From a virus (taxonomy: Duplodnaviria > Caudoviricetes), in the IMG/VR virus record IMGVR_UViG_3300031786_000007, positions 1 through 50,544 of that record: a stretch of 50,544 nucleotides of DNA. One strand, given 5' to 3'. The notes beneath the pieces were generated by a model that worked only from the letters and a program-made list of their open reading frames with translations, had not been told where the DNA came from and did not search any database. A program made the position numbers and the translations under genes. Positions within the stretch are counted from its first letter, which is position 1. Each line of letters begins with the position of its first letter. Shown here one piece after another: positions 18,101 through 50,544 of the stretch.

Positions 18101-20025
18101 GTAGTATAGTTGCATTCGCTAATTTTGATGCATTTCCTATTAAAGTACCAGATCCTAAAGATCCTTCTAAATTAGTTTATCAATCTGTAAACCTTTGGGA
18201 TGTTATTCCTAAGATAAAGGATACTTTATTAGGTGGTGGAGAAGTTGGAAGTGGAGGTTTAATATTTGCTTTAGCTGATGTATTTGCTGAAATAGGACGC
18301 AGATACGGAGGAAAAGAAGGTGGATGGTTTACTGCAGATGACCCTAGCCCAGTTAGAAAAGGTATAGATGCAATCTCTGGATTAGGAAATGAATTACAAT
18401 CCCTAGTTGGAGCTATAGTCAAGTTTGCTAACTTTGAATCATTTCCTATTCAGATACCGGACGCTAATGATCCTTCTAAATTAGTTTATAAATCTGTCAA
18501 TTTAAGTGAAGTTATCCCTAAAATGCAAAAAACATTATTAGGTGATGGTAGCATAGCCGGCGGAGGTCTTATATTATCTCTTGCGGATATGTTCGCTAAA
18601 ATTGGAGAAAGATATGGAGGCACTGAAGGTGGATGGTTTACTTCAGGCTCAGAGAGTCCTGTTAGAAAAGGTATAGATGCTATATCAGGTTTAGGTAAAG
18701 AGCTTGAATCTGTGGTTGGTGCTGTTATCAAATTTGCAAACTTTGAAACTTTTCCTGTACAAGTTCCAGACCCTAAAAATCCATCTAAATTAATTTATCA
18801 ATCAGTTAATTTATTAGATGTTATACCAAAAATGCAGAATATCTTAGTAGGAGATATGAGTGTTAATGGTAAAGTTTCCGGAAAAGAAGGTTTATTAATG
18901 TCTTTAGCTAAAATATTTTCTAATATAGGAGCTAAGTACGGAGCAGATGGATTTGTATCTCAAAATGGCGTCAAAGAAGGTATACAAGCCGTGTCAGGAA
19001 TTGGTAAAGTATTAAGTGATATCGCAGGAGGTATCTTAGCATTTGGAGAAATAGAAAGAGGAATCCCAATATACAATGAAAAAGGTAAAATAAAAGAATA
19101 TCGTCCGTTTGATATGGTTAAGATCGAAACTACGATCAAAAACGTATTAACTATGATACCTAAAGTTTTTCAAGGTCTTGATATCGATCAAATAGAAAAA
19201 GCTAATGAGATTGCAGATAAAGCTAAGCCTTTAGCTCAAACTATAGGAAAGATAGCCGAAACTTTCCAAAAATTAATGGTAGAAGATAACAAGAAAAAGA
19301 AAAGTGTTATAGGAGATCTAGGTCCTGCTCTAAAACAATTTATCACTGACACAAAAGATTTACAGATAGACGATGAAAAAACTAAGTCTCTAGATAAATT
19401 TGCAAATGTTTTAGAAAAATTGTCTAAAACTGGTAAAGGATTAGGAGAATTTGCAGATAGTTTATCTAAGACTTCTAAATCTTTCAACTTGTTTACTCCA
19501 GCATTCGAGAAATTTTCTACTAACTTAGATAAGTTTGCTAGATTTGAAACTTCATTTTCAAATCTCGTTAAAAATCAAAGCCATTACAGATTTGATCTTT
19601 TTGCTAAATCTATGGGTACTTTAAAAGAGCACGTTAATACTTTTAATGTTGAAAATTTAAAGGTAACTGATTCATTGATGAAGTCACTGGCGATACTTTC
19701 GAAGTCACCAGATACACTAGGAGAACAGATTAAAGAATCCATTGGTGAAGCATTTGATGGCCTTGTGGAAGCTTTAAAGAAACTAGTTAAAGAAATGGCA
19801 CCATCACCACAAGTAGTTGTATCGAATGGAGGAGGGGCTGAGGAGAAAAAGACTGATGAGAAATCTGATAAAACTCAAAATAAAGTAGTCCATCATCAAC
19901 AAACTATTCACCAACCACCTGTTCAACAACAATTAACGACGAGTCAGATATCAGCTGCATTTGTAGATGCATTAAATACATTTGCAAACAGTAAGAAAAA
20001 AATATCAGTTGATCCAACTCCGTAA
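15148..20025 (+). CDS. tape measure protein
   Basis: 1625 aa, Ala/Gly-rich hydrophobic repeats, position after tube and hub; TTG start after AATATATAG motif (15119-15127). Confidence 0.85.
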   Translation: MNDKQFDILIGISRNMEKSLSAIQSGLDKKSDKADKKVGKAGAILGGLGSSLESLIASVAVMSFDAKKGEDVIVFSEKLVEVANKVTSSAAKDFGEFAKGLGDAFDVLLKVMTPMKLLKLKLASKILFEGKKPLLARLIGGMQDAFKDLDSKKSAEGAKALKNTAEGLLSLTKALGGLILMGLAAPLVLLGALVARGVAALFVGIGAKAEQLEDGAKAFKTMGKGILWLTAGLAALTLAIMAIGPGKILEGVAVISAFALVFTAIGLASKQITKGAKALGMIGLGLLAFSMGLASLMLAVIISTPALILQGMLMIAGFGLVFAILGLADKYIATGALLLIGMSIALFLFSGGLMIFGLALQLFDYETALLGGIVIAGLGGALWLIGKLDSKGWVSRGSIALAEMGVALGLFSVGLAIFGLAIKLFDFETVILGAFTIAALGTAVGLLGLMSGSIIPGAFALAEIGVALLTFSIGVLAYGVAIKLLQFIFDDLSQAGKVAGGIILGIGLAFAVVGSMSGAIIPGAAAVTAIGGALFSFSIGILVFGVAIRLLQTMFDDLTEAGKIAGSIIIGLGLAFSIIGALSAPIILGAGAIALMGVSLVIFSAGIMVFAGAIKLIQTIFDDLSEAGKIAGGIILGLGLAYSTIGLMSPLVILGSVAMTLIGTTLLVYSIGLAVFAGAVKLATMAVGSDVDTLGDKFSGIITGIGWAISEMGLLIVPISLGTASLALMGTSLAFAGAGILAFGGALSVLNSQGLLIEGKDGETIKGLGVLQSIATAMAGVGWTFLTEPWTLLGISSSIGMGASLLVLGGGLYMAAEALAKIPDMSRFVEDLFSEKGLIPVMAEAFANIGNKYSGGVLGFLAGIVGADPVSRGMRTVSGLGEALKQIAGGIVAFSDFTAFPVLAPNPKDPSKLIYSTVDIFGQVIPNIQTFLPPMLTALANVFADIGNLYGGSDGGWFKPNDPSPVRKGIDAISGLGGVLQEIAGSIVAFANFDAFPIKVPDPKDPSKLVYQSVNLWDVIPKIKDTLLGGGEVGSGGLIFALADVFAEIGRRYGGKEGGWFTADDPSPVRKGIDAISGLGNELQSLVGAIVKFANFESFPIQIPDANDPSKLVYKSVNLSEVIPKMQKTLLGDGSIAGGGLILSLADMFAKIGERYGGTEGGWFTSGSESPVRKGIDAISGLGKELESVVGAVIKFANFETFPVQVPDPKNPSKLIYQSVNLLDVIPKMQNILVGDMSVNGKVSGKEGLLMSLAKIFSNIGAKYGADGFVSQNGVKEGIQAVSGIGKVLSDIAGGILAFGEIERGIPIYNEKGKIKEYRPFDMVKIETTIKNVLTMIPKVFQGLDIDQIEKANEIADKAKPLAQTIGKIAETFQKLMVEDNKKKKSVIGDLGPALKQFITDTKDLQIDDEKTKSLDKFANVLEKLSKTGKGLGEFADSLSKTSKSFNLFTPAFEKFSTNLDKFARFETSFSNLVKNQSHYRFDLFAKSMGTLKEHVNTFNVENLKVTDSLMKSLAILSKSPDTLGEQIKESIGEAFDGLVEALKKLVKEMAPSPQVVVSNGGGAEEKKTDEKSDKTQNKVVHHQQTIHQPPVQQQLTTSQISAAFVDALNTFANSKKKISVDPTP
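17750..19040 (+). repeat. ~103-aa internal repeats of tape measure protein
   Basis: GTTAGAAAAGGTATAGATGC at 18043, 18352, 18661 (exact 309-nt period); SPVRKGIDAISGLG and DPSKL.Y.SVNL units with degenerate flanking copies. Confidence 0.85.
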
Positions 20026-20039
20026 AAATTAATAGATTT

Positions 20040-20240
20040 ATGAAATTGATAGATTTTAAACTATTTGAAAAAGATACTGAGAAATACAAAGCACCTGAGT
20101 ATGTTGTGCAACCAGCTGCCAATGATAAAGGTTTCTTTATGTTTAAAGCGCAGTTTGACTCATTACATGGGAAGAAAAAAGATAAAACTAAACAAAAATT
20201 TTCTCCTAGTATTAAATGGAAGTTTGCTGATGAGATCTGA
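20040..20240 (+). CDS. small hypothetical protein with capsid-targeting-like N-terminus
   Basis: MKLIDFKLFEK start; follows tape measure gene. Confidence 0.55.
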   Translation: MKLIDFKLFEKDTEKYKAPEYVVQPAANDKGFFMFKAQFDSLHGKKKDKTKQKFSPSIKWKFADEI

Positions 20241-20243
20241 TCA

Positions 20244-20268
20244 GAACTTTTTTCTGGCTGCCATATTA
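20244..20268 (+). promoter_or_regulatory. putative ECF-type promoter GAACT-N15-TATTA
   Basis: recurrent motif; upstream of ORF 20292 and the sigma gene. Confidence 0.5.
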
Positions 20269-20291
20269 TTTCTATAAAAAAGATCTTCAGT

Positions 20292-20522
20292 ATGGAAGAC
20301 AGCAGCAAGGAAAGTTTAGAAGTGAACGGGCAATTAATTAAAAAACCTATATGTGCTAACGATAGAGCAGAAATCTTTAAAGATTCTGTCATCTTGAGTG
20401 TAGCTACAAACACTACGTTTAATATCGATTTTAATCTTTATTTCTTATGCGGTCATCGAAATTCTTTAAAAGAATTTTTTCTGTACGATGTTTCTTTTTT
20501 ATTTAAGATTTTGTTATCTTAA
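20292..20522 (+). CDS. hypothetical protein
   Basis: 76-aa ORF after a GAACT promoter motif. Confidence 0.45.
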   Translation: MEDSSKESLEVNGQLIKKPICANDRAEIFKDSVILSVATNTTFNIDFNLYFLCGHRNSLKEFFLYDVSFLFKILLS

Positions 20523-20553
20523 ATTAGACAGAAAAAGAAAAGACAGACAGAAT

Positions 20554-21474
20554 ATGATACAACAACAAAAATCGTTGCAACAGCTTGCGCTTGATTTCGT
20601 AGATAGCCGTTGTGAAAAATCTTTTACCCTGCTTCATAATAGACTGAAGCCTGGGCTCAAAAAATTCATCCAAAAATACCATCAAGACCCAGAGGTTGTC
20701 GATGAAATATTAGCCATCACTTTATCGAAGGCGTATGTTTATGCGGACAAGTACGATTCTCAATGGAATTTTAGTACATGGATATACAAAATTTGCCAAA
20801 ATGAATGTCTTATGGAAATCAGAAGGCAGAATTCTCTATACTCTCTAGATAGTATGGTAGACAATAAAATTCCAATTAAAGCTGTCAATGACGATGATTG
20901 GAAAATGGAAGATGATTATGAATTTTTCGGTGATGAAGAAACTATCCAGTCTGATTCATTATACTCTGAAGTTTTACAAGAGATAAAAAATCTTCCTGCT
21001 CATTACAAAGAAATTATTGAAGATAGAATTGTAGAAAAAATGAAATACAAGGATATCGCAGAGAAGAGAGGCTTGAAAATTAACACTATTCGTAGTAGAA
21101 TACATTCAGCAAAAAAAATAATCAAAAATCTCTGGATAGAGAAAAAGATTAAAGGAGGTTGTAGTAAAACTATCAACATTTTAGGTGTTACTATACTTCA
21201 ATTATTGGATGATGATAAGAAAAAATCTAAAAAACAAGAAAAACCTACTGTTATCGATCTGGTAATAACTAAAGCCAAGTATGGTTCTGGTATGGATTGG
21301 ATAGATGTGACTGAAAAAGCTTCTAAAATTTATTCTGAAAGATTTGAAGTAAAAGCTTCAAATAGATTAGGAGGAGACCCATGTTATGGTAGATCAAAAG
21401 CTCTAGTGATAGAATATACAAGAGAAGGAAAAGATTACGTTGAAGAAATCAGAGAAGGAAAATTCTTTAAATGA
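20554..21474 (+). CDS. ECF-type RNA polymerase sigma factor with C-terminal SUEL-lectin/DUF3395-like domain
   Basis: start moved to ATG 20554; region 2 KYDSQWNFSTWIYKICQNECL; region 4 LPAHYKEII...MKYKDIAE...INTIRSRIHSAKK; C-terminal AKYG...DVT...ASNRLGGDPCYGRSKALVIEY. Confidence 0.85.
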   Translation: MIQQQKSLQQLALDFVDSRCEKSFTLLHNRLKPGLKKFIQKYHQDPEVVDEILAITLSKAYVYADKYDSQWNFSTWIYKICQNECLMEIRRQNSLYSLDSMVDNKIPIKAVNDDDWKMEDDYEFFGDEETIQSDSLYSEVLQEIKNLPAHYKEIIEDRIVEKMKYKDIAEKRGLKINTIRSRIHSAKKIIKNLWIEKKIKGGCSKTINILGVTILQLLDDDKKKSKKQEKPTVIDLVITKAKYGSGMDWIDVTEKASKIYSERFEVKASNRLGGDPCYGRSKALVIEYTREGKDYVEEIREGKFFK

Positions 21475-21674
21475 GAATTGATTCACATACCCCTTGTAAT
21501 TTAGACCATAATGGAGAATGTCTAGTATGTGATTGCTGGATATCAGCCTGTGGTTGGAAAAGGTTGCTAGAAAATGATTTCAAATGGGAATCTAAAGAAC
21601 AACTGTTAGAAATATTTAAAGACTTTTTAAAGAATCATCCCAAAAAAAATGAAATAGAAAATGGAAAAAATTAA
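21471..21674 (+). CDS. small Cys-rich hypothetical protein
   Basis: C-x6-C-x2-C-x-C-x4-C cluster; ATGA overlap with sigma gene. Confidence 0.6.
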   Translation: MRIDSHTPCNLDHNGECLVCDCWISACGWKRLLENDFKWESKEQLLEIFKDFLKNHPKKNEIENGKN

Positions 21675-21885
21675 AAAAATGATAATTGATATCGCCACTA
21701 CGTTAATAACTATTTATATAGTAGTCAAAGGTTCAATGTTATTGACTGAAATGTACACTAAACCTCTGACTATAGAAACAATGCTTTTTGGGGTTTTAGG
21801 AATTGTAGTTCTGTTACCAGCTTTTAATGCTTGGAGAAGTATCCTAAATTACGAGAAAAAAGAAGAGAATTCAGAAGAGAACTAA
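21661..21885 (+). CDS. small two-TM membrane protein
   Basis: two hydrophobic segments. Confidence 0.6.
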   Translation: MEKIKKMIIDIATTLITIYIVVKGSMLLTEMYTKPLTIETMLFGVLGIVVLLPAFNAWRSILNYEKKEENSEEN

Positions 21886-21904
21886 ACATCAATTACTCAT
21901 ATAA
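21879..21904 (+). promoter_or_regulatory. putative ECF-type promoter GAACT-N16-TATAA
   Basis: recurrent motif upstream of ORF 21910. Confidence 0.5.
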
Positions 21905-21909
21905 ACAAC

Positions 21910-22323
21910 ATGAACAGGACAAAGAAAATTTTCAGAGAAATAAAAAACTATTTTTTCTTAAGAAGAGTTTTGAGTAAAGAATCTAATGCTCCTGATTCTA
22001 GATGGCAGACTTACAAACTTAGAAAAAATTGGTTCGGTAGAATCTATACTGTAATATCTCTAAGAGAAGAAGAAGCTGGTGAAGAAGAGATGGTGAAAAA
22101 TTGGTTAGCTATGGAAAGAATGAAGCCTATAAATGAGTACTTGACTGATCTAGGTGTTCATGAAATAATTTTTCCTAGCATAGAAAAAATTGAAAATTCT
22201 AGATCTTATTTAGTAGTATACTCTCCTCTATTCAGAGAAACTACCTTGAAATGGTTTTTTTGGAGAATTGTTTTGCTAGTTATTACTGCATTAGCTTTAA
22301 ATTATCTAAAAAATATCATTTAA
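21910..22323 (+). CDS. hypothetical protein with C-terminal TM helix
   Basis: 137-aa ORF; WFFWRIVLLVITALAL. Confidence 0.7.
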   Translation: MNRTKKIFREIKNYFFLRRVLSKESNAPDSRWQTYKLRKNWFGRIYTVISLREEEAGEEEMVKNWLAMERMKPINEYLTDLGVHEIIFPSIEKIENSRSYLVVYSPLFRETTLKWFFWRIVLLVITALALNYLKNII

Positions 22324-23096
22324 TGGGAAAAAAGAAAAAGATCTTACAGAGAATTGATACGCCTAGTGGCAGAGCATATGCTCTGTTATGTGAAAATCAA
22401 AAAGCATTATTCTTACCATCAGTGACTTCAGTGTTATCACTTAAACATTCTAGTCATTTAGCTGAGCTTGAAGAAAAAATTGGAAAAGAAGATCTTCAAA
22501 AGATATCGGAGAGAGCCGCTAAAAGAGGTACAGCTATGCACTTATTTTTGGAAAATTATATGATATGTATGAAACAGAAAGGGGATTCTGATTCATGTTT
22601 ATTATATACACAACGTAAAAGTACAGATGCCCTTTTACATGAAATGGATAAAGATCGTGTAGACGTGGGAAGATCTTTATTCTATAACGTTTATCACTCA
22701 GGCCTTTTCGATAAAATCAAAAAAGTTATATTTACAGAGAAATTTTTACATTCAGAAAGATTTCTTTTTGCTGGTACAACTGATTTTGGTTTTCTTGATA
22801 TCGATGATTATATCGTGATAACAGATTTTAAAAGTGCATCAACACCTAGAGACGAAGAAACTATAGATAAGTACAAATGTCAAGTTGCTGCTTACGCTAT
22901 AGCTTTTGAAGAAATGTATCAGAAACCTGTTCATAGAGGAGAAGTTTGGATATCTCATACGGATGGAATACAATGTATAGAAGTTCTAGGAGAAGAAATG
23001 GAAGAGAAGAAAAAAGAGTTCATAAGCCTTTGTGATTCATATCATTCTATGTGGGACACAAAACCATTTGAAGACTATCTTGCTCTAGATATATAG
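22323..23096 (+). CDS. PD-(D/E)XK exonuclease (Cas4-like/phage exonuclease family)
   Basis: start moved to ATG 22323 (TAATG coupling); LPSVTSVL, RGTAMH, FAGTTD, ITDFKS, QVAAYAIAFEE. Confidence 0.88.
   Translation: MGKKKKILQRIDTPSGRAYALLCENQKALFLPSVTSVLSLKHSSHLAELEEKIGKEDLQKISERAAKRGTAMHLFLENYMICMKQKGDSDSCLLYTQRKSTDALLHEMDKDRVDVGRSLFYNVYHSGLFDKIKKVIFTEKFLHSERFLFAGTTDFGFLDIDDYIVITDFKSASTPRDEETIDKYKCQVAAYAIAFEEMYQKPVHRGEVWISHTDGIQCIEVLGEEMEEKKKEFISLCDSYHSMWDTKPFEDYLALDI
23088..23096 (+). promoter_or_regulatory. putative late promoter GATATATAG
   Basis: motif overlaps upstream stop codon TAG. Confidence 0.7.
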
Positions 23097-23117
23097 TAAA
23101 CATAAAAACAACATAAA

Positions 23118-23630
23118 ATGGAAACACCTGCGACAGCAAACAACGAAAAATCATTAAATGATTTTCAAAGAGAATCGCTAATCAAAGCGGAAAATGAATT
23201 AAACGCTCTTAGAGAAGAGTTAGCTAACAAAAAGTATTTAATAGATTTAAACAAATCAGACATTAAATTACTTAATGATTTTAACAAAAATGATGCGACT
23301 TGGAAATTTACAGAGTGTCTAGGAGTAGTTGAGATTGAGAAAGAGCTTAAAGATGCTCTAAAGACTGGAAAACTTTACATTGGTGCTATGCCAATTGAAG
23401 CTATTTATTACTACTTGAGCAAAGTTGAAGGTAACGGAAAAAATACTAACACTACTACTTTCGAAACAGTAGATGACTATATCCGTGTACTGAAAGCTAT
23501 GACAGGAGGTATGGAAAGAGTTAAAGCTGATAATGATAAGATCAGAAATCAGGAATTCGTAGTAGCTTCTAGACGTGAAGGTATTGAACCAGATTCTTCT
23601 ATCGAGAACAATAACGAAAACAATAACTAA
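23118..23630 (+). CDS. hypothetical late protein
   Basis: 170-aa ORF between late motif and terminator. Confidence 0.75.
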   Translation: METPATANNEKSLNDFQRESLIKAENELNALREELANKKYLIDLNKSDIKLLNDFNKNDATWKFTECLGVVEIEKELKDALKTGKLYIGAMPIEAIYYYLSKVEGNGKNTNTTTFETVDDYIRVLKAMTGGMERVKADNDKIRNQEFVVASRREGIEPDSSIENNNENNN

Positions 23631-23637
23631 GAAAGAT

Positions 23638-23671
23638 AAAAGAGCCTCTTTCTTAGAAGAGAGGCTCTTTT
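23638..23671 (+). terminator. intrinsic terminator
   Basis: AAAAGAGCCTCT-loop-AGAGGCTCTTTT. Confidence 0.8.
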
Positions 23672-23696
23672 GTTTTATAAGCAGGAAAAACACTAT

Positions 23697-24017
23697 ATGG
23701 AAAAAATGAAACCTTTAATAGAATTTATTAAGACACATGCTGTCAAAATATTATCAGTACTTTTGATATTTGCATATATAGGGTCTTGTAATAAAGGAAG
23801 ACGTTTAAGAAGAATTGAAAAACAAAATATTGTACTAGTTTCTCAAGTAGACAGTTTAAAAAACGTTACTGTAAATTTTAAAGAAACTTTAAGAAAAGAA
23901 AAACTAAAGATTCACCAAGAATACGATCTCTGGATATCAAATAAAGATAGAGGAGAACAACTAATGGATTTACATACTAATTTTGTAAAGCCAAAGATAC
24001 AAGAACTTAGTAGATAA
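23697..24017 (+). CDS. membrane-anchored coiled-coil protein (spanin-like architecture possible)
   Basis: start moved to ATG 23697; ILSVLLIFAYIGSC then coiled coil. Confidence 0.55.
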   Translation: MEKMKPLIEFIKTHAVKILSVLLIFAYIGSCNKGRRLRRIEKQNIVLVSQVDSLKNVTVNFKETLRKEKLKIHQEYDLWISNKDRGEQLMDLHTNFVKPKIQELSR

Positions 24018-27973: not shown

Positions 27974-29191
27974 ATGAGTAAAACTTTAGGGTTAAGCATG
28001 ATAGTTAAGAATGAATCTCATGTCATTCTTAGATTACTAAATTCAGTAGTCCCAATAATTGATTATTGGGTTATTGCAGACACTGGCTCAACAGATGGTA
28101 CGCAAGAAATAATACAGAAGTTTTTTGAAGAGAAGGGTATACCTGGTAAACTTTTACAAATAGACTGGATAGATGATTTTTCTTATGCTAGAAATCAATC
28201 ATTGAATGAAATAGAAAAACATGTAGATTATGGAATGTGGATAGATGCCGATGAAGAGCTTATCATTAACAGCTCTTTCAATAAAGAAGAAATGTTGAAG
28301 CAAGAGTTTCATTCAATATCCATTGAAACTATTTACGGAAAAGTAAATTACACTAGAAAAAATATCTGGAAAACAGGTATGAATTTCTACTGGGAAGGTC
28401 CTATTCATGAGTTGTTATCGTCAAAAGAAGAGACTATCGGTGGTCTAGCAAAAGGTTTAAGCGTAGTAGTTAGAGCTGAAGGTAGTTCTTGGGGAAATAT
28501 CATAGAGAAATACCTAGGTCATGCTAAAATATTACAAGCACATGCTGAAAAAACTAATGATCCTAGATGGGTATTTTACACAGCACAATCTTACAGAGAT
28601 GCACAAGAATACCCGACATCTATAGAATGGTACAAGAAAAGAGCTGAAATGACAGAAGGTTTTTATGAAGAAACTTTCATATCTAAATTAATGGTTGCAA
28701 AATTATCTGAAATTATCGGTAAAAGTAAGAATGAGTGTACTATTTTATACCAAGAAGCAAATTCGTCCGACCCTGCAAGAGGAGAAGCTATTAAGAATTT
28801 AATTCAGATGTACCATAGACTCAATGACTGGGAAAATGCGTACGTATTCTCTTTGTACGGATTAAAATACAACAAAAATAATCCTTATCCTCATAGAGTT
28901 CTTTTCTTAGATACTGCATTGTATGACTTTGAAATGTTAGAATTACATTCTCTTTCATGTTTTTATACTAATAGGATAGAAGAAGGCTCTAGATGCTATT
29001 GGATGATGAGACAACAACTTCTTGAACTAGGTCCAGATTATTTACCACAAGAAGCTATGCAAAGAGTATTAAACAATGAGCAATACTTTCCGATAACTCA
29101 TGCTACTGGTATTGTAAGCCCTCAGAAAAAAACTTTAAAGCCTTCTTTTCCTGCACACGGAGGATCGAAGAAAAATAGAAAAAAGAGGTAG
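27974..29191 (+). CDS. GT2 glycosyltransferase with TPR-like repeats
   Basis: start moved to ATG 27974; LSMIVKNE, DTGSTDGT, DFSYARN, IDADE, GPIHE; helical FYTAQSYRD repeats. Confidence 0.9.
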   Translation: MSKTLGLSMIVKNESHVILRLLNSVVPIIDYWVIADTGSTDGTQEIIQKFFEEKGIPGKLLQIDWIDDFSYARNQSLNEIEKHVDYGMWIDADEELIINSSFNKEEMLKQEFHSISIETIYGKVNYTRKNIWKTGMNFYWEGPIHELLSSKEETIGGLAKGLSVVVRAEGSSWGNIIEKYLGHAKILQAHAEKTNDPRWVFYTAQSYRDAQEYPTSIEWYKKRAEMTEGFYEETFISKLMVAKLSEIIGKSKNECTILYQEANSSDPARGEAIKNLIQMYHRLNDWENAYVFSLYGLKYNKNNPYPHRVLFLDTALYDFEMLELHSLSCFYTNRIEEGSRCYWMMRQQLLELGPDYLPQEAMQRVLNNEQYFPITHATGIVSPQKKTLKPSFPAHGGSKKNRKKR

Positions 29192-30638: not shown

Positions 30639-31030
30639 TAAAAGTATTCGAAACCAATTTACTCAAGCCTATTGACAAAGAGTTAGTCAAAATAGCAGAT
30701 GAGTTTGGATATAAGGGTATTTCAGTTTGCGTGCTAGATCCTAAAATTAAACAGAGTATTTATTGGTCTACAACAAATGTAAAATTTTTGGTCGGAGAAC
30801 CTGATGAAAGAACTAAAAACAAAGGAAGAGATTCTGACGGTTGGCCAGGAGTGTGGAGAATTACAGAAAAACTTGGCGGAGGTGCAGGTTGTGGAAATCA
30901 TCAACAACGACAGTTAACTCATGACCATAAGTTTTCAGAAGTTTCTTATTTGAAAATAAAAGGCGTGTGGTACATATCAAATGGAATAGAAAATATAACA
31001 AAAAGTATTAACGAAAAATTTAATTTATGA
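30635..31030 (+). CDS. hypothetical protein with C-terminal KFNL
   Basis: 131-aa ORF coupled to neighbours by ATGA overlaps. Confidence 0.65.
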   Translation: MIKVFETNLLKPIDKELVKIADEFGYKGISVCVLDPKIKQSIYWSTTNVKFLVGEPDERTKNKGRDSDGWPGVWRITEKLGGGAGCGNHQQRQLTHDHKFSEVSYLKIKGVWYISNGIENITKSINEKFNL

Positions 31031-31935
31031 GTCTAAATTTAGGATATGCTTGTATCAATATGAACCTCTCAGAGAAAGGAATTTCTACTAATAGAGGTAT
31101 GATTAAGAAAACTTTCTTAACTAAAGGAAAAGATTATGCAGCAGATCTAGCTCTTAAAAATCTAGAAGATCTTAAAACTATTATAAAATGGAACTCTGAA
31201 AATGGTATATTCATATACAGAATGAGTTCATGTTTGTTCCCTTGGATGTCAGAATATGATTTTAAAGATCTTTATAACTATGATGCAATTTTGAAATCTT
31301 GTAAAGAAATTGGAAAATTAGCTAGCGATCATGGACAACGATTAAGTTTTCATCCCGGACATTTTGATATTCTAGCTACTAGCAACCCAGATGTTTTAAG
31401 AAGGACTGTTTTGGATCTTAATCAACATGCTCAGATCATGGATATGATGGAGCTCAGAGAAGATGGCTATAATACTATAAATATACACGTAGGTGGTGCT
31501 TATGGTGATAAAGCTTCTGCTTTGAAAAGATTCTGTGAAAATTTTGGTTTATTACAACTTAGTGCTAGAAAAAGGCTCACCGTTGAAAACGATGACAAAG
31601 CTAGTATGTATTCTGTTAATGACTTGTACAACGGTGTCTACAAAGAAATTAAAATACCAATTATTTTTGATTTCCATCATCATAGAATGTGTGACGGTGG
31701 TTTAACGGAGAGAGCTGCTCTCCAGCTTGCAGCCTCTACATGGCCCTCTGGAATTCGCCCCCTTACACATTATTCGAGTTCTAAGAAGCTTAATGAAGAT
31801 TCTAGCGTAAATCATCAAGCTCATGCAGAGTACTTATATGAACAAATAAATACTTACGGATTAGATATCGATATAGAACTAGAAGCTAAAGCAAAAGAAC
31901 TGGCATTAGTAAAATACAGAAAAGATTATGAATAA
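31027..31935 (+). CDS. uvsE: UV DNA damage endonuclease (UVDE)
   Basis: LGYACIN, YRMSS.LFP, RLSFHPGHF, INIHVGG, VENDDK, FDFHHH, ELEAKAKE. Confidence 0.95.
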   Translation: MSLNLGYACINMNLSEKGISTNRGMIKKTFLTKGKDYAADLALKNLEDLKTIIKWNSENGIFIYRMSSCLFPWMSEYDFKDLYNYDAILKSCKEIGKLASDHGQRLSFHPGHFDILATSNPDVLRRTVLDLNQHAQIMDMMELREDGYNTINIHVGGAYGDKASALKRFCENFGLLQLSARKRLTVENDDKASMYSVNDLYNGVYKEIKIPIIFDFHHHRMCDGGLTERAALQLAASTWPSGIRPLTHYSSSKKLNEDSSVNHQAHAEYLYEQINTYGLDIDIELEAKAKELALVKYRKDYE

Positions 31936-32122
31936 AAAAGAAGAAATTGTAAAGATTGTTGAAGAATTAAAAGATGACAAGATTACAGTAGATGAAGCTG
32001 AGCAATTGTTATTAGATTTATTTAAAGCCTCTAAAACAAGATGGAGAGGATATTGCAGTTCAGAAACATTAACAGGAAAAAGATGTAAAGAGTTATGTGA
32101 TAAATCTCAATGCGGATGGTAA
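31928..32122 (+). CDS. small hypothetical protein
   Basis: 64-aa ORF with C-terminal Cys cluster. Confidence 0.55.
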   Translation: MNKKEEIVKIVEELKDDKITVDEAEQLLLDLFKASKTRWRGYCSSETLTGKRCKELCDKSQCGW

Positions 32123-32152
32123 CAAAATAGAGATTATTTGTTATTTTTATAC

Positions 32153-32713
32153 ATGAATATTTTTGTTTTAGATACTGACGTAAAAAAATGTGCAGCTTAT
32201 CATTGCGATCGTCATTTAATTAAAATGATCACTGAGCATAACCAAATACTTGGATCTATAGCACACACATCCAGAGGAATTAGTAAAAAGTCTGAAATTA
32301 CTCCTGAATACATTATTGAAAATTTTAAAGGATTTCCACGTGTCAATGAAAATAGAGATATTTCTCCATACGGAATAGGATATAAAACTCATCCTTGTAC
32401 TCAATGGGCTAAAGCTAGTTCACAGAATTATGAATGGGTATGTTCTTTAACAGAAGAGATGTGTAAAGAATACACTCGTAGGTATAAAAAGATTCATGCC
32501 GGAGAAGCTGTAATTAACTGGTACAGATATCATCAACCTCAATTACCTAGTCATGGCATGACACCGTTTGCTCAAGCTATGCCAGAATACCTTAAATCAG
32601 AAAATGCTGTACATTCGTATAGGTTATATTACGTAAAGCATAAGTCTAATTTTGCTACCTGGAAAAACGGAGAACCTGAATGGTGGAACAAATACATGTT
32701 ATTGGAAGTATAA
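32153..32713 (+). CDS. pyrimidine-dimer DNA glycosylase / endonuclease V-like family protein
   Basis: start moved to ATG 32153; MNIFVLD, HCDRHLIKM, HPCTQWA, EYTRRYKKIH, FAQAMP, YRLYY. Confidence 0.8.
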   Translation: MNIFVLDTDVKKCAAYHCDRHLIKMITEHNQILGSIAHTSRGISKKSEITPEYIIENFKGFPRVNENRDISPYGIGYKTHPCTQWAKASSQNYEWVCSLTEEMCKEYTRRYKKIHAGEAVINWYRYHQPQLPSHGMTPFAQAMPEYLKSENAVHSYRLYYVKHKSNFATWKNGEPEWWNKYMLLEV

Positions 32714-37004: not shown

Positions 37005-38711
37005 ATGGATCTATCAACTCTTAGAAATAACATTACACAAAAACGTATAGACAATAAAAATATAATCTCTGAATTTAACGAACTTAAGAGAAATAAAAAA
37101 CTTTTAGAAGAAGTTTCATTACTATTTCCATTTATAGATGTTTCAGACGTTGGTAAACTTTTGTATCATTTAAGAGACAATTTAAGTGTTCAAAAATGTA
37201 ACTGTGGAAAAGAAAAAAAGTTTATTTCTTTTAGTAAAGGATATTTTAAAACATGTGGAAACAAAAAATGTGTAGACGATACTCGGTTAAATTCAATTAA
37301 AGAAACAACCAAAGAAAAATATGGTGTAGAGCATACATCACAATTAGAGACTACTAAGAAAAAGCATAAACAAACTATGACTGGCAAATATGGTTGCAGT
37401 CATAATTTTACAGGTAAACTAAGAGATGCTATATATGAAAAAAATGAAAAGGAATGGGGAGTAAAACATGCTTTACAACGAAAAGAATCTAAATTGAAAA
37501 AAGAAGAGACTATGTTAAATAGATACGGTTCTTTAGATATGTTCTCTAATGAAAAAACGATAAAAACTAACATAGAAAAATATGGGAATAAAAATCCCAT
37601 GAAATCTGAAGAAATTGCTAATAAAGTATCAGAGTCTTTAAAAAGAACATTTACACATAGACAAATAGAAAAATTGCACAAATTTGATATACTATTATTA
37701 GAGTATAATAATCTAAATCAATATTATAATGTGTTATGTAATAAATGTAATATTGAATCTGTAGTTGCTGGCGCTACAATGAATTCTAAGTTAAGATCTG
37801 ATGTATCTCCTTGTCCAATATGCAACCCTTATATACCTTCTTATGTTTCAAATTTAGAAATAGAATTTAAAGAATGGTTACAAAGCTTGGGTGAAATATT
37901 GCAATCATCTGTTAAAACTATAGTTCCTAAAAATGAATTAGATATTTATTTACCAAACAGAAAAATCGGATTTGAGTTTAATGGAATTTATTGGCATTCT
38001 GAGCTATACAAAGATTGCAATTATCATTATAAAAAATCTATGAAATTTTTGGAAAAAGGTGTAAAGATTTTTCATATATGGGAAGATGATTGGGTAGAAA
38101 AAAAAGAGATCGTCAAGAAACGCATACTTTCATTATTAAATAAGTCTGAAAAAACTGACGCTAGGAAATGTGAAATATTAAGTATAGATTTTAAAACAGC
38201 TTCAAAGTTTATAAATGACAATCATTTAGATGGGAACTTTAAAGCTAAAATATATCTAGGAGCTTATGAAAATGAGAAGCTAATAGGAGTGATGTCTTTT
38301 TCTCATTCAAGATTTAGTAAAAATAAAGATGAATGGGAAATTATAAGATTTTGCACTTCAAAAAATGTAAGAGGTTTAGCTTCTAAATTTATATCTAGAT
38401 TTAAAAAAATTATAGATCCTAATAAAATTATATCTTTTTCAAAAATAGATTGGAATTCTTCTTATGAAAATTCAGTATATTACAAAATAGGGTTTTCATT
38501 AGATAGTATATCCCCTCCTTCTTCTTATTGGAATATAAACGGAAAACGAATACATAGGCTCAATTTTATTAAAAGCAAAATATCCAATGAAGAAAATAAA
38601 CACATGAGTGCTGTGGAAATAATGCATAGTAAAAATTATTACAGAGTATGGGATTGTGGAAATTGGAAATTTAGTTGGAATAAAAGTTTATGTGACGCAA
38701 AAGATATATAG
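37005..38711 (+). mobile_element. free-standing homing endonuclease-like gene (Hef/Vsr-like PD-(D/E)XK domain, KYG repeats, C-terminal GNAT/Mom-like domain)
   Basis: EKYGV/GKYG/RYG repeats; CNKC..CPIC; ELDIYLP..GFEFNGIYWHS, HIWEDDW; ARKC..NHL.G..IGVMSF..WEIIRFC..YYKIGF; visibly more AT-rich than neighbours; inserted right after MCP terminator. Confidence 0.75.
38703..38711 (+). promoter_or_regulatory. putative late promoter GATATATAG
   Basis: overlaps upstream stop codon; 18 nt before ATG 38730. Confidence 0.72.
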
Positions 38712-42522: not shown

Positions 42523-42729
42523 ATGGAATTTGAAATTATAGCAATCACATTATTGTACGTATATGGGATACTCGGATCTTTATCTTTTATGAAAAATATT
42601 TGGAAGAACGGTATAGCTAAAAATTATACGTTACATTTAACAATATGTTTCATTCCAGTGTTGAATACTCTTATAGCTCTCACTAATAATTACATAGATT
42701 ACATAACTGCAAAAATGAAAAGAAAATGA
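42523..42729 (+). CDS. small two-TM membrane protein
   Basis: start moved to ATG 42523; two hydrophobic segments, FIPVLN. Confidence 0.6.
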   Translation: MEFEIIAITLLYVYGILGSLSFMKNIWKNGIAKNYTLHLTICFIPVLNTLIALTNNYIDYITAKMKRK

Positions 42730-44081
42730 AAAATAATGTAGGAATACTTATATTTGGAGATCCAACCAGAGGAGGTACAATTGCATCAGAAGTTAAATTC
42801 TTGAAAAGTTTATACGAATCAAATAATCATGATTCCGATTTTTATATCGTCACTGTTAACGATTCAGTTACAAAGAAAATAATCAAAGAAAAGGAAACTA
42901 CTTATGATTTTCCGCATGAAATTGTTCAAATTTTTGGAGAAAGTGATCTTTATAAATTAGATCATTTTTCATGTTTAGTAACTTATCCTGGACATTCAAA
43001 CTTTTTTGGAGGTTACTTAAATGATAATATTGTTAAAATGTACAAAATTATCTCTAAGTTCACAAATGATTTAAAAAGACCTGTGTTTGTCAGAATTAAT
43101 GATTCTGAAATTAAAGTTAGAGATTACAGAAGATTATCGAAACAGAGATTAGACGCTGGTTATTTAGCAAGAGAAGAAGGTAAACCTGATTCAGCATTTA
43201 TGAGAGATCCTATCAATGTAGGTAAAGCTGAAGATATAGTATCTTGGAAAGAATGGGATTACTCATTAGTTTATTGGTTTGCTAACGGATCTAAAGAAGC
43301 TTGTGATTGGGTTTCTGAAACTATGTACGATAGAGAAGATGAATACTTTAGAATGACAACTCCTGAACAATTCAGAGAGAATACAATTTATGTTTCCGAT
43401 GATATTTTCTTTTTAGTTAAGAAAAATTACCAGCGTTTTAACAAACGATACTCTGAACAAGTAGGGTTGGAAAATAAATTTTGCTATATTGGATTTTTTG
43501 ATACAGTCAATGTAGCAAGAGCAAAAGCTTTTAATAATTTATTCAAAGAAAATGTTCATAAAGTTCCGTTAAAAATATTTGGAAAGGGAACTGAAATTCT
43601 TACAAAATTCAAAGATAAGACAAATGTAGATATCGAAGAAGGTTTTATTAAAGGAGACTCTGAAGAATACTTTGATTTTTTAAATAAACATTTAGCTTAC
43701 GTGTTCATAGGCAAAGGTCAAAGTGAATCAAGATATATTGGTAAAACTGTATATGATGCAATCGTAGCAAGAACTCCTATAGTTGTTTACAAGAAATGTG
43801 ATTCTAAAATGATTACATTCAAAAACCCTGAATTCTATTTTGAAAATGAAGAAGAGCTTAAAGCTATTTTTGATAAACTTCAGGATAGTGAAACAAGAGA
43901 TCGATGGATTAGTGAACAATATAATGATATTATGAGTAAACTTCCACCTTCTACTTTTAAGTTTACTAATTACTGTAATATTTTGGGTTCTCTTCCAGAA
44001 GAATTACATTTTAAAGGATATCCTCAAAAAGAAGTTAAACCTAAGAAAGCTCAAACTATTAAAACTGTAGAACTTTTTTAA
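42726..44081 (+). CDS. DNA glycosyltransferase, T4 beta-glucosyltransferase (BGT)-like GT-B
   Basis: TIASEVKFL, SNFFGG, VRINDSE, CYIGFF, AYVFIG, FYFENEEEL align with recalled T4 BGT PSSETIYL, INFFGG, LFTDIR, IYGGSF, ALIIG, FYVNNRAEL. Confidence 0.75.
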   Translation: MKNNVGILIFGDPTRGGTIASEVKFLKSLYESNNHDSDFYIVTVNDSVTKKIIKEKETTYDFPHEIVQIFGESDLYKLDHFSCLVTYPGHSNFFGGYLNDNIVKMYKIISKFTNDLKRPVFVRINDSEIKVRDYRRLSKQRLDAGYLAREEGKPDSAFMRDPINVGKAEDIVSWKEWDYSLVYWFANGSKEACDWVSETMYDREDEYFRMTTPEQFRENTIYVSDDIFFLVKKNYQRFNKRYSEQVGLENKFCYIGFFDTVNVARAKAFNNLFKENVHKVPLKIFGKGTEILTKFKDKTNVDIEEGFIKGDSEEYFDFLNKHLAYVFIGKGQSESRYIGKTVYDAIVARTPIVVYKKCDSKMITFKNPEFYFENEEELKAIFDKLQDSETRDRWISEQYNDIMSKLPPSTFKFTNYCNILGSLPEELHFKGYPQKEVKPKKAQTIKTVELF

Positions 44082-44482: not shown

Positions 44483-44889
44483 TAAAAAGATTAGCAGAAA
44501 TCAATGCATCTGGTGACAGTATTACTACTGAAGAATTCTTAGAAAGAAAGGCTATTGTAGATTCTTTACATAAAGAAGGAATTATCGAACTGGGTGTAGG
44601 AGGAAATTTCTTATTCACTAGTGCAAAAAGCCAAGAAGAGTACGTAGAAGCTTTTGATAAGAAAAAAATGGATATTTCTAGAGAAGCTACGATGAAGATG
44701 GAAGGGATTTATTTTCTAGTAAAATGGCCTGAATCTCAACTTTTGATGGATGAGGATTGGTTTGATAAAGAATGCCATTTAGCTGAAATGGAAAAAGATC
44801 CTGAAATTGGAAACTCAGCTTATTTCATCCCAGTTAAGAGGATGATTATTCTAGAAGAAAAATTAAATGCTATAGCTAATGAAGGTTAA
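44479..44889 (+). CDS. hypothetical protein
   Basis: 136-aa ORF, YFLVKWPESQ.LM..WF motif; function unknown. Confidence 0.65.
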   Translation: MIKRLAEINASGDSITTEEFLERKAIVDSLHKEGIIELGVGGNFLFTSAKSQEEYVEAFDKKKMDISREATMKMEGIYFLVKWPESQLLMDEDWFDKECHLAEMEKDPEIGNSAYFIPVKRMIILEEKLNAIANEG

Positions 44890-46069
44890 TGTTATACAAT
44901 TTGACCCTGTGATAGGCGGGGAAACTACTCTTACTAATGCTTTAGTAGCTATCTTGAAAAAAGCACATGATGTTAGGATTATTCATCCTGTTCATGCTGG
45001 AAAATCGGGAAAACTGAAAATTAACAAAGCTTGGGGTAAAGTTGAAGGTGAAGAATTTCTCACTTATTCTCAAACCGCAGAAGCTTGTGAAGATGTAGAT
45101 TTTATTTTCTGTGTTAACGCTAAACACGTTAAAGGATCTGTGAAATCTGACAAAAGAGAACAGGCTCAAGCAGATTCAGATGCGTTCTTTGGCCAATTTC
45201 ACGATAAAGATTTTATCTTCTATGAGCATGGATTTCATACATGGAGGCTTTATAATTACGAGAATCTATTTGAAAAGTTGATGAAAAATGATAACACTAT
45301 CAGAGTTCTGACTAACACTAATATGGCTATCGAGTTTTACAAAACCAAGAATTATAATGCATATTTGTGTCGTCAACCTTTCAACACTGATCTTTATAAG
45401 CCACTTAAAGAGAAAAAAACTTTTACGGATTTTGATCCATACAATATGGCTCACCAATACGTCGGGGAAGCTCCTGTTAAAATCTGTTTTAATTCTAGGT
45501 ATAGTTCTACAAAAGGACCTCATGTGATCATAAAAGATTTTATGCAATTCTTTAATAAAGATTTGAATTTCAAATTGCAATTCAGAGGTAACATTAGTGA
45601 TCCAGTTTCAGTGTGGCATAATATCGATGGAGTTCTTTTGAAAGATGTAGTTAGATCTAAAAAAGAGATAGTTTTCTTGGATTTTGCCGATGATATATCT
45701 GACATCTATCAAGATCAAGATTACTGTGTCTATGCAGGGTATTTAACAAGAGAAGAAAGAGGAAAAATAGAGTATGCTGTTCTAGAACCTATCTTTTACG
45801 GTATCCCTTTGATTGTTCATCCTGATGTTTTTGCTTATTTTAAATACGAAGAGTATGGTGTATCAGAAGAACAATTGAGAAAATGTTTCATAGAATTAAC
45901 TCCTGAAAACATACAGAAAATTATAAATAGGGAATTTGATCCTTCTGAATATATTAGAAATGCTAAAATAATTCTAGAAGATTTCTTGCCTGAAAAAATC
46001 TTGGAAAGATTTGACGCATGTTCATCTTCTCCTGCTTCTAAAGGTCGTAAAAAAGTTGAATTATTTTAG
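44879..46069 (+). CDS. DNA glycosyltransferase, T4 alpha-glucosyltransferase (AGT)-like GT-B
   Basis: IGGETT, FIFYEHG, RQPFN, SRYSSTKG, KIEYAVLE..YG align with recalled T4 AGT GCGVTK, VVYQHD, FQPPM, GRTTTWKG, SLEYTHLE..CG. Confidence 0.7.
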   Translation: MKVNVIQFDPVIGGETTLTNALVAILKKAHDVRIIHPVHAGKSGKLKINKAWGKVEGEEFLTYSQTAEACEDVDFIFCVNAKHVKGSVKSDKREQAQADSDAFFGQFHDKDFIFYEHGFHTWRLYNYENLFEKLMKNDNTIRVLTNTNMAIEFYKTKNYNAYLCRQPFNTDLYKPLKEKKTFTDFDPYNMAHQYVGEAPVKICFNSRYSSTKGPHVIIKDFMQFFNKDLNFKLQFRGNISDPVSVWHNIDGVLLKDVVRSKKEIVFLDFADDISDIYQDQDYCVYAGYLTREERGKIEYAVLEPIFYGIPLIVHPDVFAYFKYEEYGVSEEQLRKCFIELTPENIQKIINREFDPSEYIRNAKIILEDFLPEKILERFDACSSSPASKGRKKVELF

Positions 46070-46885: not shown

Positions 46886-47470
46886 ATGAAGTTACTAATT
46901 ATAGAAGGGCCCGATCGCTGCGGGAAAAATACATTAATCAAAAGTTTGACATCTCAAGCTGAAAATTATGTAGTTCGCCATTTTGGAACAGCTAAAGGCG
47001 AAACTAATTTTGAAAAAAGAGATCATCAATTTCAATTTTTCAAAAAAGAATTTGAGCTAGCATCTCAAAGACGACAGTTTGAAATGCCCGATAAAATGAG
47101 ATATCCTAGAGATATTTGGATCTGGAACAGGGCTCATTTAGGTGAATTTGTATACGGGAAAATGTATAGAGAAACACATCCTGAAGAATGGGTGATGCAG
47201 ATGGAAAGTTTATTCGGCATGGATATAGATCCATCTGTATATCTTTTACTTCTTACAGCCGACCCAGGGTTTCTTTGTAAAAATGATGATGGGCAATCAT
47301 TCTCAGCAGATATTGAAAAGAAAAAAACTGAGCTTTATCAATTCGATGTAGCTTTTGATAAAAGTAAAATTTTGAATAAAATGAGATTAAATGTCAGTAA
47401 CGGAGATGAATCTTATTTAGATCAAGATATAATCTTAGATACAGTTAATAAATTCTTAAATTTTAAATAA
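46886..47470 (+). CDS. thymidylate-kinase-like dNMP kinase
   Basis: LIIEGPDRCGKNT P-loop; IWNRAHLGEFVYG (DR-motif position). Confidence 0.85.
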   Translation: MKLLIIEGPDRCGKNTLIKSLTSQAENYVVRHFGTAKGETNFEKRDHQFQFFKKEFELASQRRQFEMPDKMRYPRDIWIWNRAHLGEFVYGKMYRETHPEEWVMQMESLFGMDIDPSVYLLLLTADPGFLCKNDDGQSFSADIEKKKTELYQFDVAFDKSKILNKMRLNVSNGDESYLDQDIILDTVNKFLNFK

Positions 47471-48447
47471 TGAGTTACATCGAAAATGATTCGTTTGAAA
47501 CAGCATCAGATATTGGGTATAACCATATCAATTTACAAGTATTCCAACTTTTGGAAGATTTGGAAGCTGCAGGACAAACTTCTTCTCCTAGAGGATTAAA
47601 AACTAAGGAAGCTAACTTAGCTACTTTAGATATTGATCCATTGTACCCTGTCATAGATTTTAAATCTAGAAGATTCAATTGGAAATATTTTGCAGGTGAA
47701 CTTGCATGGTACTTAAAAGCAGATCCTTCTATCGATTTCATTAACAATTTTTCTTCTTTCTGGAAAGGGATAACTCCATCAGGAAAAGCTAATTCTAATT
47801 ATGGAAATTTGCTTTTTAGACCTCATCCTTCTTCAACTTCTAATATATCAAATCCACAAGGTGTTAATCAATTAGAATGGATTTACGATTCTCTAGTTAA
47901 AGATAAACACACTAGACAGGCTGTAGGTTTCTTTAATGCTCCATATTTTCAATATGAAGGAAATAAAGATTTTGTGTGTACAATGTATATTAATTTCTGG
48001 ATAAGAAAAGATCATCTTGAAATGAAAGTGCAAATGAGATCTAATGATATTTTCTTTGGTTTAACTTATGATGCACCTTGGTTTTCTTCAATTCACCAAA
48101 GTATGTACCTGAACCTAAAACAAGTTTATCCAGATTTGAAATTAGGAGTTTATTACCACTCAGCTGATAACATTCATTTTTACGAAAGACACTTTGAAGT
48201 AGCTGATAAAATTTTAGATGAAGGTATAGATACTACAATTAAATTGAGAATGATACATCCGTTATTTAGATTTATAGAAACGGTTACTCCCGGTAAGCAT
48301 AGTTTAGTCATTAATGAAAAAGCTGTAACTTATTTGAAAATTATAGATGATATAATTGATTCAGAAGATGATAATAAAGATAAAAATTTCTGGAAAAGTA
48401 CCCTTGGATATCTCTATGAGATCACAGGAGACAATCTGGATAAATAA
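47470..48447 (+). CDS. thymidylate-synthase-family enzyme with dCMP-type specificity residue (T4 gp42 dCMP hydroxymethylase-like)
   Basis: ELAWY, NSNYG, TRQA, KDFVCT, QMRSNDIFFGLTYDAPW (Asp in place of ThyA Asn177), HFYERHF. Confidence 0.85.
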   Translation: MSYIENDSFETASDIGYNHINLQVFQLLEDLEAAGQTSSPRGLKTKEANLATLDIDPLYPVIDFKSRRFNWKYFAGELAWYLKADPSIDFINNFSSFWKGITPSGKANSNYGNLLFRPHPSSTSNISNPQGVNQLEWIYDSLVKDKHTRQAVGFFNAPYFQYEGNKDFVCTMYINFWIRKDHLEMKVQMRSNDIFFGLTYDAPWFSSIHQSMYLNLKQVYPDLKLGVYYHSADNIHFYERHFEVADKILDEGIDTTIKLRMIHPLFRFIETVTPGKHSLVINEKAVTYLKIIDDIIDSEDDNKDKNFWKSTLGYLYEITGDNLDK

Positions 48448-50020: not shown

Positions 50021-50408
50021 TTACGATTTAGAAAAAGGATCAATCTGGGAATTCTTTTATTTCACAAAAGAATCTTCTAATATTGATCCTTCACATGAAC
50101 AATATTTAGTAGATGAACAAACTAGAACTATCATGCAAGATAGTTTTAATCCTCCTGAAGGTCTTTCTCCTGCTGAATATTCTCAATTGTTCTTGCAACA
50201 TTTTTTAAAAACTAGAGAAAAATCTAAAGAGATTGTAGATGAAAATAATCAAAAAATTTCTAGATACAAAATTTTTTCTCAATTAGGAAATTTTGAATGT
50301 TTAAAAGAACTTTCAAAAATAGAAGCTGAAGAAAATTTTCATTCGTGGGAAAATGAATCGCTTTTAAATTATTTTAAACAGCTTTCAAACGAGTACATAA
50401 ATGGATGA
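50013..50408 (+). CDS. hypothetical protein
   Basis: start moved to ATG 50013 (or 50010), overlapping previous stop. Confidence 0.6.
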   Translation: MNNYDLEKGSIWEFFYFTKESSNIDPSHEQYLVDEQTRTIMQDSFNPPEGLSPAEYSQLFLQHFLKTREKSKEIVDENNQKISRYKIFSQLGNFECLKELSKIEAEENFHSWENESLLNYFKQLSNEYING

Positions 50409-50544
50409 TAAAAAAAAACTTTTAGTAACTGGTGCAGGAGGGCAATTAGCTAGAGAATACGAGTTGTCAGATCCAATGATGGACTGGGATTATATTTTTT
50501 TAAGTCGAAGCGATTTAGACATCTCTAATATAAATGCTATTAGA
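50401..50544 (+). CDS. rmlD: dTDP-4-dehydrorhamnose reductase, N-terminal fragment (runs off window; not in the ORF track)
   Basis: manual translation MDDKKKLLVTGAGGQLAREY...LSRSDLDISN; G-x-x-G-Q-L Rossmann motif plus R..LDI typical of RmlD/RfbD. Confidence 0.75.
   Translation, partial: MDDKKKLLVTGAGGQLAREYELSDPMMDWDYIFLSRSDLDISNINAIR

Follow-up and report, generated by a model that had tools for sequence, protein, structure and literature searches.

The phage gene described here encodes an ECF-like sigma factor that ends in a lectin-type domain, and this sigma-lectin architecture is real, conserved and apparently undescribed. The presence of the same lectin-type domain on a second, unrelated sigma factor in this phage clade is also new here and makes the case stronger than in the earlier note. 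The gene (20554..21474) lies in a window of 50,544 nucleotides, by which we mean the whole stretch of DNA that was analysed. By its terminase, sheath, gp23-type capsid and clamp-loader-like genes the window belongs to a large T4-like phage, of which it is a fragment, 16% complete by CheckV. The sigma factor is the product of a core gene of the phage lineage, and the synteny shows a fixed location for this gene after a tape-measure-like gene. The small ORFs adjoining it have no family match in Pfam.

Six public runs, two labelled as lake water and four as fungus metagenome, contained half or more of the sampled words; the window may derive from four of them. Positions 19000-24000 are unbroken in one public contig, which may also be the source of the same DNA. 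Three RNA runs contain small shares of the region, and the ECF sigma gene is on no contig among those listed for two runs. The gene is composed of the following parts:

20554..21474, + strand: ECF-like sigma factor with a putative permuted SUEL/RBL-type domain (ORF, 306 aa)
20635..20832, + strand: sigma region 2, residues 28-93 (PF04542, E 2.6e-8, over cut-off)
20968..21117, + strand: sigma region 4.2, residues 139-188 (PF08281, E 6.5e-9, over cut-off)
21169..21201, + strand: short predicted beta-hairpin after region 4, residues 206-216
21211..21246, + strand: Lys-rich low-confidence linker of variable length (pLDDT below 50 at residues 220-231)
21253..21471, + strand: domain of ~73 residues read as a circularly permuted SUEL/rhamnose-binding-lectin type (sequence profiles, predicted fold, residue conservation)

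The sigma factor and its C-terminal domain

An earlier note on this DNA had described a complete ECF sigma factor with regions 2 and 4, a Lys-rich linker and a C-terminal domain, and the ORF is built in just this way. PF04542 and PF08281 are the domain content of the ECF type (group 4), and in an NCBIfam scan of the 306-aa protein TIGR02937 (sigma70-ECF) reaches 63.9 bits with a cut-off of 42.9. Regions 1.2 and 3 gave no Pfam match in this protein. The best Foldseek matches are SigE/SigW, and the best NCBIfam match is a Bacteroidetes ECF subfamily, below its cut-off. The beta-hairpin at residues 206-216 predates the fusion, since unfused sister sigmas end in a similar segment. In the full-length model (pTM 0.33) the lectin domain itself is predicted well, and there is no fixed packing of it on the sigma core.

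For the last ~73 residues the best Pfam match is DnaJ-like_C11_C/DUF3395 (PF11875), with 20.3 bits against a cut-off of 27.1 (E 5e-4), a cut-off which multi-copy relatives of the domain do exceed. SUEL_Lectin (PF02140) follows with 12.7 bits against 31.4 (E 0.17). A phmmer search matched the domain to the solved rhamnose-binding lectin 5h4s at E 4.6e-7, and its profile matches 5h4s at E 3.6e-16 and CSL3 at E 2.3e-11. When the isolated domain was folded with 43 sequences the pLDDT was 94, and in a VIA structural search of 48,161 chains the top five matches were all RBL/SUEL domains (Z 4.7-5.7, rmsd 2.1-2.3, 58 residues). The best of them was CSL3 with Z 5.7 and rmsd 2.1 over 58 residues, which is a modest Z for a predicted model; Foldseek with the domain alone found no match in the PDB at E 0.001 or better. 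The CSL3 profile match and the five VIA matches thus uphold the lectin-like fold that had been proposed for the C-terminal ~70 residues.

The VIA alignment pairs residues 1-59 of the model with 18-96 of CSL3 and leaves model residues 60-73 and the first 17 residues of CSL3 unpaired, the latter including the binding Glu7. The profile places the terminal Glu-Gly of the model on Glu107-Gly108, where the next CSL3 repeat starts. From sequence and model we read the domain as a circularly permuted RBL fold in which the Glu turn has moved to the C-terminus. According to the accessible part of PMC3269628, CSL3 contacts its sugar through Glu7, Tyr27, Asn74, Asp79, Gly83 and Lys86. In our alignment these are matched by E301 (for Glu7, or Glu107 of the next repeat), Y243, N270, D275, G279 and K282, with identical spacing within the Asn-to-Lys segment. 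The Asn/Asp/Gly/Lys sugar-site motif claimed previously is therefore present in full, and the binding Glu that seemed to be missing would be supplied through the permutation by E301.

All six site residues are kept, by alignment, in 88 of 89 complete ECF-fused domains (two truncated rows were left out) and in 74 of 76 primary-like-fused domains. Copies on other proteins keep them in 130 of 317 cases; these copies are full-length, come from 50%-identity representatives and hence are more diverse, and three likely sigma fragments were left out of them. Asn, Asp, Gly and Glu occur together in 162 of the 165 sigma-fused domains at a mean identity of 38-51%. The Glu is never an Asp in the 165 sigma-fused domains reaching this position, and is one in 37 of 320 other copies. 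In the latrophilin RBL the corresponding exchange, E42D, lowers binding about 80-fold (PMC2430599, accessible part). The conservation of the residues alone is no proof of binding, because Tyr, Lys and Glu have a structural role as well, as a network that stabilises loop 2 in the latrophilin RBL (same source). Basic residues at both 267 and 271 (K267/R271 in the query) are found in 72/89 ECF-fused and 72/76 primary-like-fused domains and in 7/317 others, and this pair may reflect shared ancestry. Taking the sequence and the model together, we consider it probable that the domain binds sugar.

The permuted domain is not restricted to sigma factors, and 509 representatives match it at E up to 0.001. 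The non-sigma copies are mostly tandem repeats, with a signal-peptide-like start in 107 of 147 proteins by a crude score, and giant-virus methyltransferase-type fusions also contain the domain. A GH106 rhamnosidase segment accompanies it in one of 44 proteins scanned, and the GenBank phage collection gave no match to the domain. Among individual proteins, P0351, P0361, P0362 and P0377 contain the permuted domain, and its partners there are a BlaR1-type peptidase, a GH106 rhamnosidase segment, a methyltransferase and an ADP-ribosyltransferase. The circular permutation would tie DUF3395/DNAJC11-C to the rhamnose-binding lectins, and so offer a testable sugar site for an unassigned family.

Distribution of the fusion in two sigma factors

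The lectin-type domain is found in 91 of 122 listed ECF homologues, query included, in a set that holds the best 120 of 146; this rules out an assembly artefact or chance fusion. The domain is missing in 29 ECF sisters of 216-239 residues at ~50-60% identity, and one further listed homologue is a fragment. The ECF sigma P0086 (L047:2682-3899) is nested in the fused clade and has a different C-terminal domain of ~170 residues instead, with no Pfam match. This points to a later replacement of the lectin domain, and the function of the replacing domain may show the role of the C-terminal slot.

When 28 viral records were searched with the profile of the domain, G002 proved to have another copy, which terminates an unrelated sigma factor of 302 residues. 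This sigma is termed primary-like by the sources, and Pfam detects only regions 2 and 4 in it. In this family 76 of 122 listed members have the domain; 19 closely related sisters lack it, as do 27 more distant, cellular-like sigmas. Both sigmas of G002 are fused and lie on one contig, and in G005 and G007, which are one phage, both are unfused. For six further fused ECF/primary-like pairs the longest contigs of the two members have the same length, five of them on a recheck, and this suggests that the members of each pair lie on one contig. Between landmarks the linker is variable in both families: the spacing from H184 to Y243 is 52-69 residues among the 91 fused ECF homologues and the corresponding stretch of the primary-like sigmas is 30-47 residues, a spread of 17 residues in each.

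In the trees of both sigma cores a single branch divides fused from unfused proteins, with matching sub-branches and SH-aLRT values of 89 and 85; these are quick IQ-TREE runs on 41 (ECF) and 36 (primary-like) sampled rows with supports below 95. A larger FastTree agrees with the ECF split, and its primary-like tree is rooted within the fused group at low support. With the unfused outgroups the trees point to one domain gain in each sigma, both at the same node, and suggest that the two were gained jointly. As this is one evolutionary event, there is no correlation that could be counted.

When set against 60 sampled others, all 165 sigma-borne domains fall on one branch (FastTree 0.90) and are largely divided by sigma type within it, so the domain duplication must be old. 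Ongoing gene conversion between the two copies is not supported, as seven presumed same-genome pairs are 30-45% identical and the background is 38%. Across the sigma families only P0088 and P0089 group together with P0200. These three belong to the earliest-branching fused lineage and have a Cys-less variant of the domain, 51-53% identical across families; their likeness hints at local conversion or at slow change since the duplication.

The clamp-loader gene of G002 and G005 has the second sigma gene 4-5 kb upstream of it. The window begins at the clamp-loader gene, and among the viral contigs none overlaps the window upstream, where its second sigma would lie; beyond its right end the DNA continues in public contigs. 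The closest sigma matches in the GenBank phage collection are from Lak, other large uncultured and cr-series gut phages at 25-31%, and the best 80 of 98 matches in genome contigs are cellular sigmas at 21-35%, mostly of Bacteroidota. Two 402-residue frames (L039:2310-3518 and L040:9377-10585) contain two sigma-like segments in tandem.

Promoters, host polymerase and candidate DNA-glycosylation genes

The motif GATA(T/A)ATA precedes structural genes, and 11 of its 15 plus-strand copies fall in the 6% of the window that is intergenic (1817, 3751, 7116, 9642, 13149, 13862, 27390, 29191, 32795, 33338 and 46275). This late-like motif is conserved across the phage lineage, with promoters of the form GATATATA, and upstream of it there is no obvious consensus by eye. 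In all 13 distant loci with an ECF orthologue a less strict form of it also lies between genes, and we take the motif to resemble the T4 late element. From this co-conservation we infer that the ECF-like sigma would serve these late-like promoters. The motif is identical in fused and unfused phages and has no cytosine in its top strand; no promoter change tied to the fusion was found. A sigma-70 consensus scan near the ECF sigma gene stayed at chance level (10 versus 8.7).

An RNA polymerase beta gene was not found in any of five larger relatives (66-97% complete), with 14 of 14 controls detected. It seems therefore that the phage sigmas use the host RNA polymerase, in line with gp23-type jumbo phages, which use their own sigmas on host polymerase (PMC7824862, accessible part). 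The host is presumably one of the Bacteroidota. This is suggested by the NCBIfam subfamily (below cut-off), the cellular matches and the TAnnTTTG sites of the sister G005, where 30 of 54 plus-strand sites are intergenic. We take TAnnTTTG to be the Bacteroidota promoter element. Many small early-type genes follow a near-identical repeated host-type promoter block at G005:C1 ~47000-72000.

The genes of the window which might be involved in glycosylation are these:

27974..29191, + strand: family-2 glycosyltransferase, candidate protein glycosyltransferase (SunS-like match, E 7e-11, below cut-off)
42726..44081, + strand: predicted GT-B glycosyltransferase 1, candidate DNA glycosyltransferase (language-model features only)
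44879..46069, + strand: candidate glycosyltransferase 2 (gene position and earlier reading only)
46886..47470, + strand: nucleotide kinase (phrog_761, E 1.7e-8)
47470..48447, + strand: thymidylate-synthase homologue, predicted dCMP hydroxymethylase/hydroxylase (dCMP-specificity Asp, residue 201)
50401..50544, + strand: RmlD-like reductase, first 48 codons, cut by the contig end (TIGR01214, E 0.0066)

The run from the GT-like gene and candidate glycosyltransferase through the kinase and dCMP-type thymidylate synthase to the RmlD-like gene resembles known cytosine-glycosylation clusters, as these clusters and the dCMP-specificity Asp are described in the accessible part of PMC13326640. The earlier note had assigned cytosine-glycosylation enzymes and RmlD to the window. 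This holds for the dCMP-type thymidylate synthase, whose best PDB matches are the (d)CMP hydroxymethylases MilA (5b6d) and that of T4 (1b49). Glycosyltransferase 1 is predicted from features only, with an Atlas feature score of 0.96 to an alpha-glucosyltransferase cluster, equal to that for other GT clusters, and has no match in Pfam, PHROGs, the PDB or the phage collection. Candidate glycosyltransferase 2 has no informative match in Pfam, PHROGs, NCBIfam, the PDB or the phage collection, and it occurs only in the window, with no relative in the viral contigs or in 24 other records (fragments). The RmlD-like gene is a stub, 38% identical to the RmlD of an rml cluster.

The simple link between DNA-glycosylating enzymes and a sigma-borne reader, proposed in the earlier note, is weakened by the distribution of glycosyltransferase 1 and the thymidylate-synthase homologue. 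In G006, whose ECF sigma is unfused, glycosyltransferase 1 is found in the same place at 67% identity, and the unfused G019 and G026 have the thymidylate-synthase homologue at 58-59%. The dCMP-specificity Asp is present in all 78 thymidylate-synthase loci. None of 35 further records bearing this gene has the lectin-type domain, and eight of them have the ECF orthologue. It follows that the modification of cytosine predates the fusion and is more widespread, and that it does not depend on the reader. Among fused contigs the region of the glycosylation genes is spanned by the window alone. In G027 the 1.8 kb after glycosyltransferase 1 is filled by other genes. RmlD-family matches were found in one of 25 records (fragments), the unfused G023, and are possibly other NDP-sugar enzymes.

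Three further observations concern the gene content of the window. A 403-residue protein without a family match (48501-49712) is found downstream of the thymidylate synthase in 5 of 78 loci at 28-30%. A large homing-endonuclease-like gene with a weak Mom-family match (37005-38711) directly follows the major capsid gene. At 31027-32713 a UvdE UV endonuclease gene adjoins that of a pyrimidine-dimer glycosylase, giving two routes of UV repair.

Possible roles of the domain and comparison with known systems

Two unrelated sigmas gained one module at the same node, and the simplest explanation for this is a common ligand, that is, something which both sigmas would meet, such as DNA, the polymerase or a common regulator. 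Our leading proposal, which we hold tentatively, is that the domain is a flexible sugar-binding tether, by which the polymerase of the host would be kept at phage DNA with a predicted cytosine mark of the rhamnose or galactose type. The basic pair beside Asn270 would grip the phosphate next to the sugar, and a dense glycosylation of the genome would offset a millimolar affinity; the latrophilin RBL binds rhamnose with a Kd of 1.8 mM (PMC2430599, accessible part). The lectin domain might then be an add-on that favours self over host DNA and is not required for promoter recognition. A tether fits better than an allosteric switch because the linker is variable and of low confidence and the domain has no fixed packing in the predicted model.

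Against such a DNA-glycan tether stands the late-like motif, unchanged between fused and unfused phages and without top-strand cytosine. So does glycosyltransferase 1, for which the feature search ranks a glucosyltransferase cluster first, given that the latrophilin RBL does not bind glucose (PMC2430599, accessible part). Phage DNA glycans are diverse (bioRxiv 10.1101/2023.12.21.572611, accessible part), and rhamnose has no mention in the accessible text of the phage DNA glycan papers searched for the word, this one included. We are more doubtful still about the fuller scenario, in which a rhamnose-type cytosine glycan is written by this clade of large freshwater phages and read by a lectin domain that was grafted at one time onto both sigmas, thus steering the host polymerase to self DNA.

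It is unlikely, in our view, that the domain is instead a sensor of a soluble ligand (dTDP-rhamnose, another nucleotide-sugar or a sugar phosphate) which gates both sigmas on the supply of glycosylation donors for DNA or virion. The intact site, together with a basic pair that could hold a pyrophosphate, would suit such a ligand, the window contains an RmlD-like gene, and C-terminal extensions of ECF sigmas commonly regulate their activity (PMC7826278, accessible part). However, one and the same sensor would need to act on two sigma cores that are unrelated, and neither the model, with its lack of a fixed contact between domain and core, nor the 17-residue spread of linker lengths in each family speaks for this.

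Slightly less likely again is a use of the fold that is independent of sugar, as a module for protein interaction, dimerisation or nucleic-acid binding, with the residues kept for structure. The loop 2 network of Tyr, Glu and Lys in the latrophilin RBL would allow this, the nearest Pfam family is the C-terminal domain of DNAJC11, and according to structure titles latrophilin lectin domains have been solved in complex with the protein teneurin. But the near-constant quartet of Asn, Asp, Gly and Glu, with no change from Glu to Asp, argues for a sugar site, as do the secreted-like tandem repeats among the related permuted domains (by the crude signal-peptide score) and, weakly, the one relative that accompanies a GH106 segment.

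The least likely alternative is a glycosylated protein as the partner of the domain, such as the RNA polymerase of the host, a clamp or co-activator of the phage, or a regulator that a phage glycosyltransferase has tagged; this would help the sigmas to outcompete the host sigma. Polymerase is established as the common partner of both sigmas, the window has a family-2 glycosyltransferase, and T4 gp55 and gp33 share a C-terminal sliding-clamp tether on a variable linker (PMC2988020, accessible part), but this glycosyltransferase lies among structural genes and has a 53% counterpart in an unfused sister, and no glycosylated partner was found.

Phage DNA glycosylation has been treated mainly as armour against nucleases. 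If the tether on glycosylated DNA is true, the glycan would be a positive transcription signal, the domain would be the first DNA-glycan reader that is small and amenable to design, and a virus would possess an epigenetic writer-reader pair at transcription initiation. Whatever the ligand, one module on two unrelated sigmas points to an undescribed control of sigma factors, for which the unfused sisters are natural controls.

The fusion had been noted as unfamiliar among characterised sigma factors, and in the literature searched, subscription papers being outside its scope, we found no report of it. The literature on DUF3395 contains, by title, nothing on phages or sigma factors, and no related work was found among the matches listed for SUEL lectins in phages or for SUEL with sigma factors; for lectin-type extensions of phage ECF sigmas an unrelated review is the one match. 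The words lectin, SUEL and DUF3395 are absent from the accessible main text of the ECF re-classification, supplements aside (PMC7826278). The accessible part of PMC12619734 describes aquatic Bacteroidota phages that are large and possess a core sigma and glycosyltransferases, but has no lectin.

The sigma-borne domain shares with SUEL/RBL lectins (CSL3 2zx0, SUL-I 5h4s, latrophilin RBL; PF02140) the same predicted fold, the Asn-Asp-Pro-Cys-Gly-Lys segment and six site residues. In contrast to the canonical SUEL domain it is, as we read it, permuted in order, has ~73 instead of ~95 residues, contains one Cys in the query, lacks the four disulfides, and is without the long loop 1. It is also single-copy, cytoplasmic, placed on a sigma factor and below the Pfam cut-off. 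With DnaJ-like_C11_C/DUF3395 (PF11875) it shares the same permuted order. Most relatives there are secreted and tandemly repeated, or are fused to enzymes of giant viruses, whereas the sigma-borne copies add the basic pair and form their own branch. Extended ECF sigmas such as ECF41 (SnoaL), ECF42 (TPR), ECF238 (Cys-rich) and ECF52 likewise have an additional C-terminal domain behind regions 2 and 4; the present one differs in being phage-encoded, in its lectin-type extension and in the occurrence of the same extension on a primary-like sigma. Two T4 systems work in a similar way, with no homology shown, as far as their accessible descriptions go. T4 gp55 and gp33 are two transcription proteins with one C-terminal tether on a variable linker, whereas the tether of the phage studied here would be a folded lectin domain. 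Through T4 Alc, transcription can tell modified cytosine DNA from unmodified DNA, but this works by termination, whereas a sigma-borne lectin would act positively at initiation.
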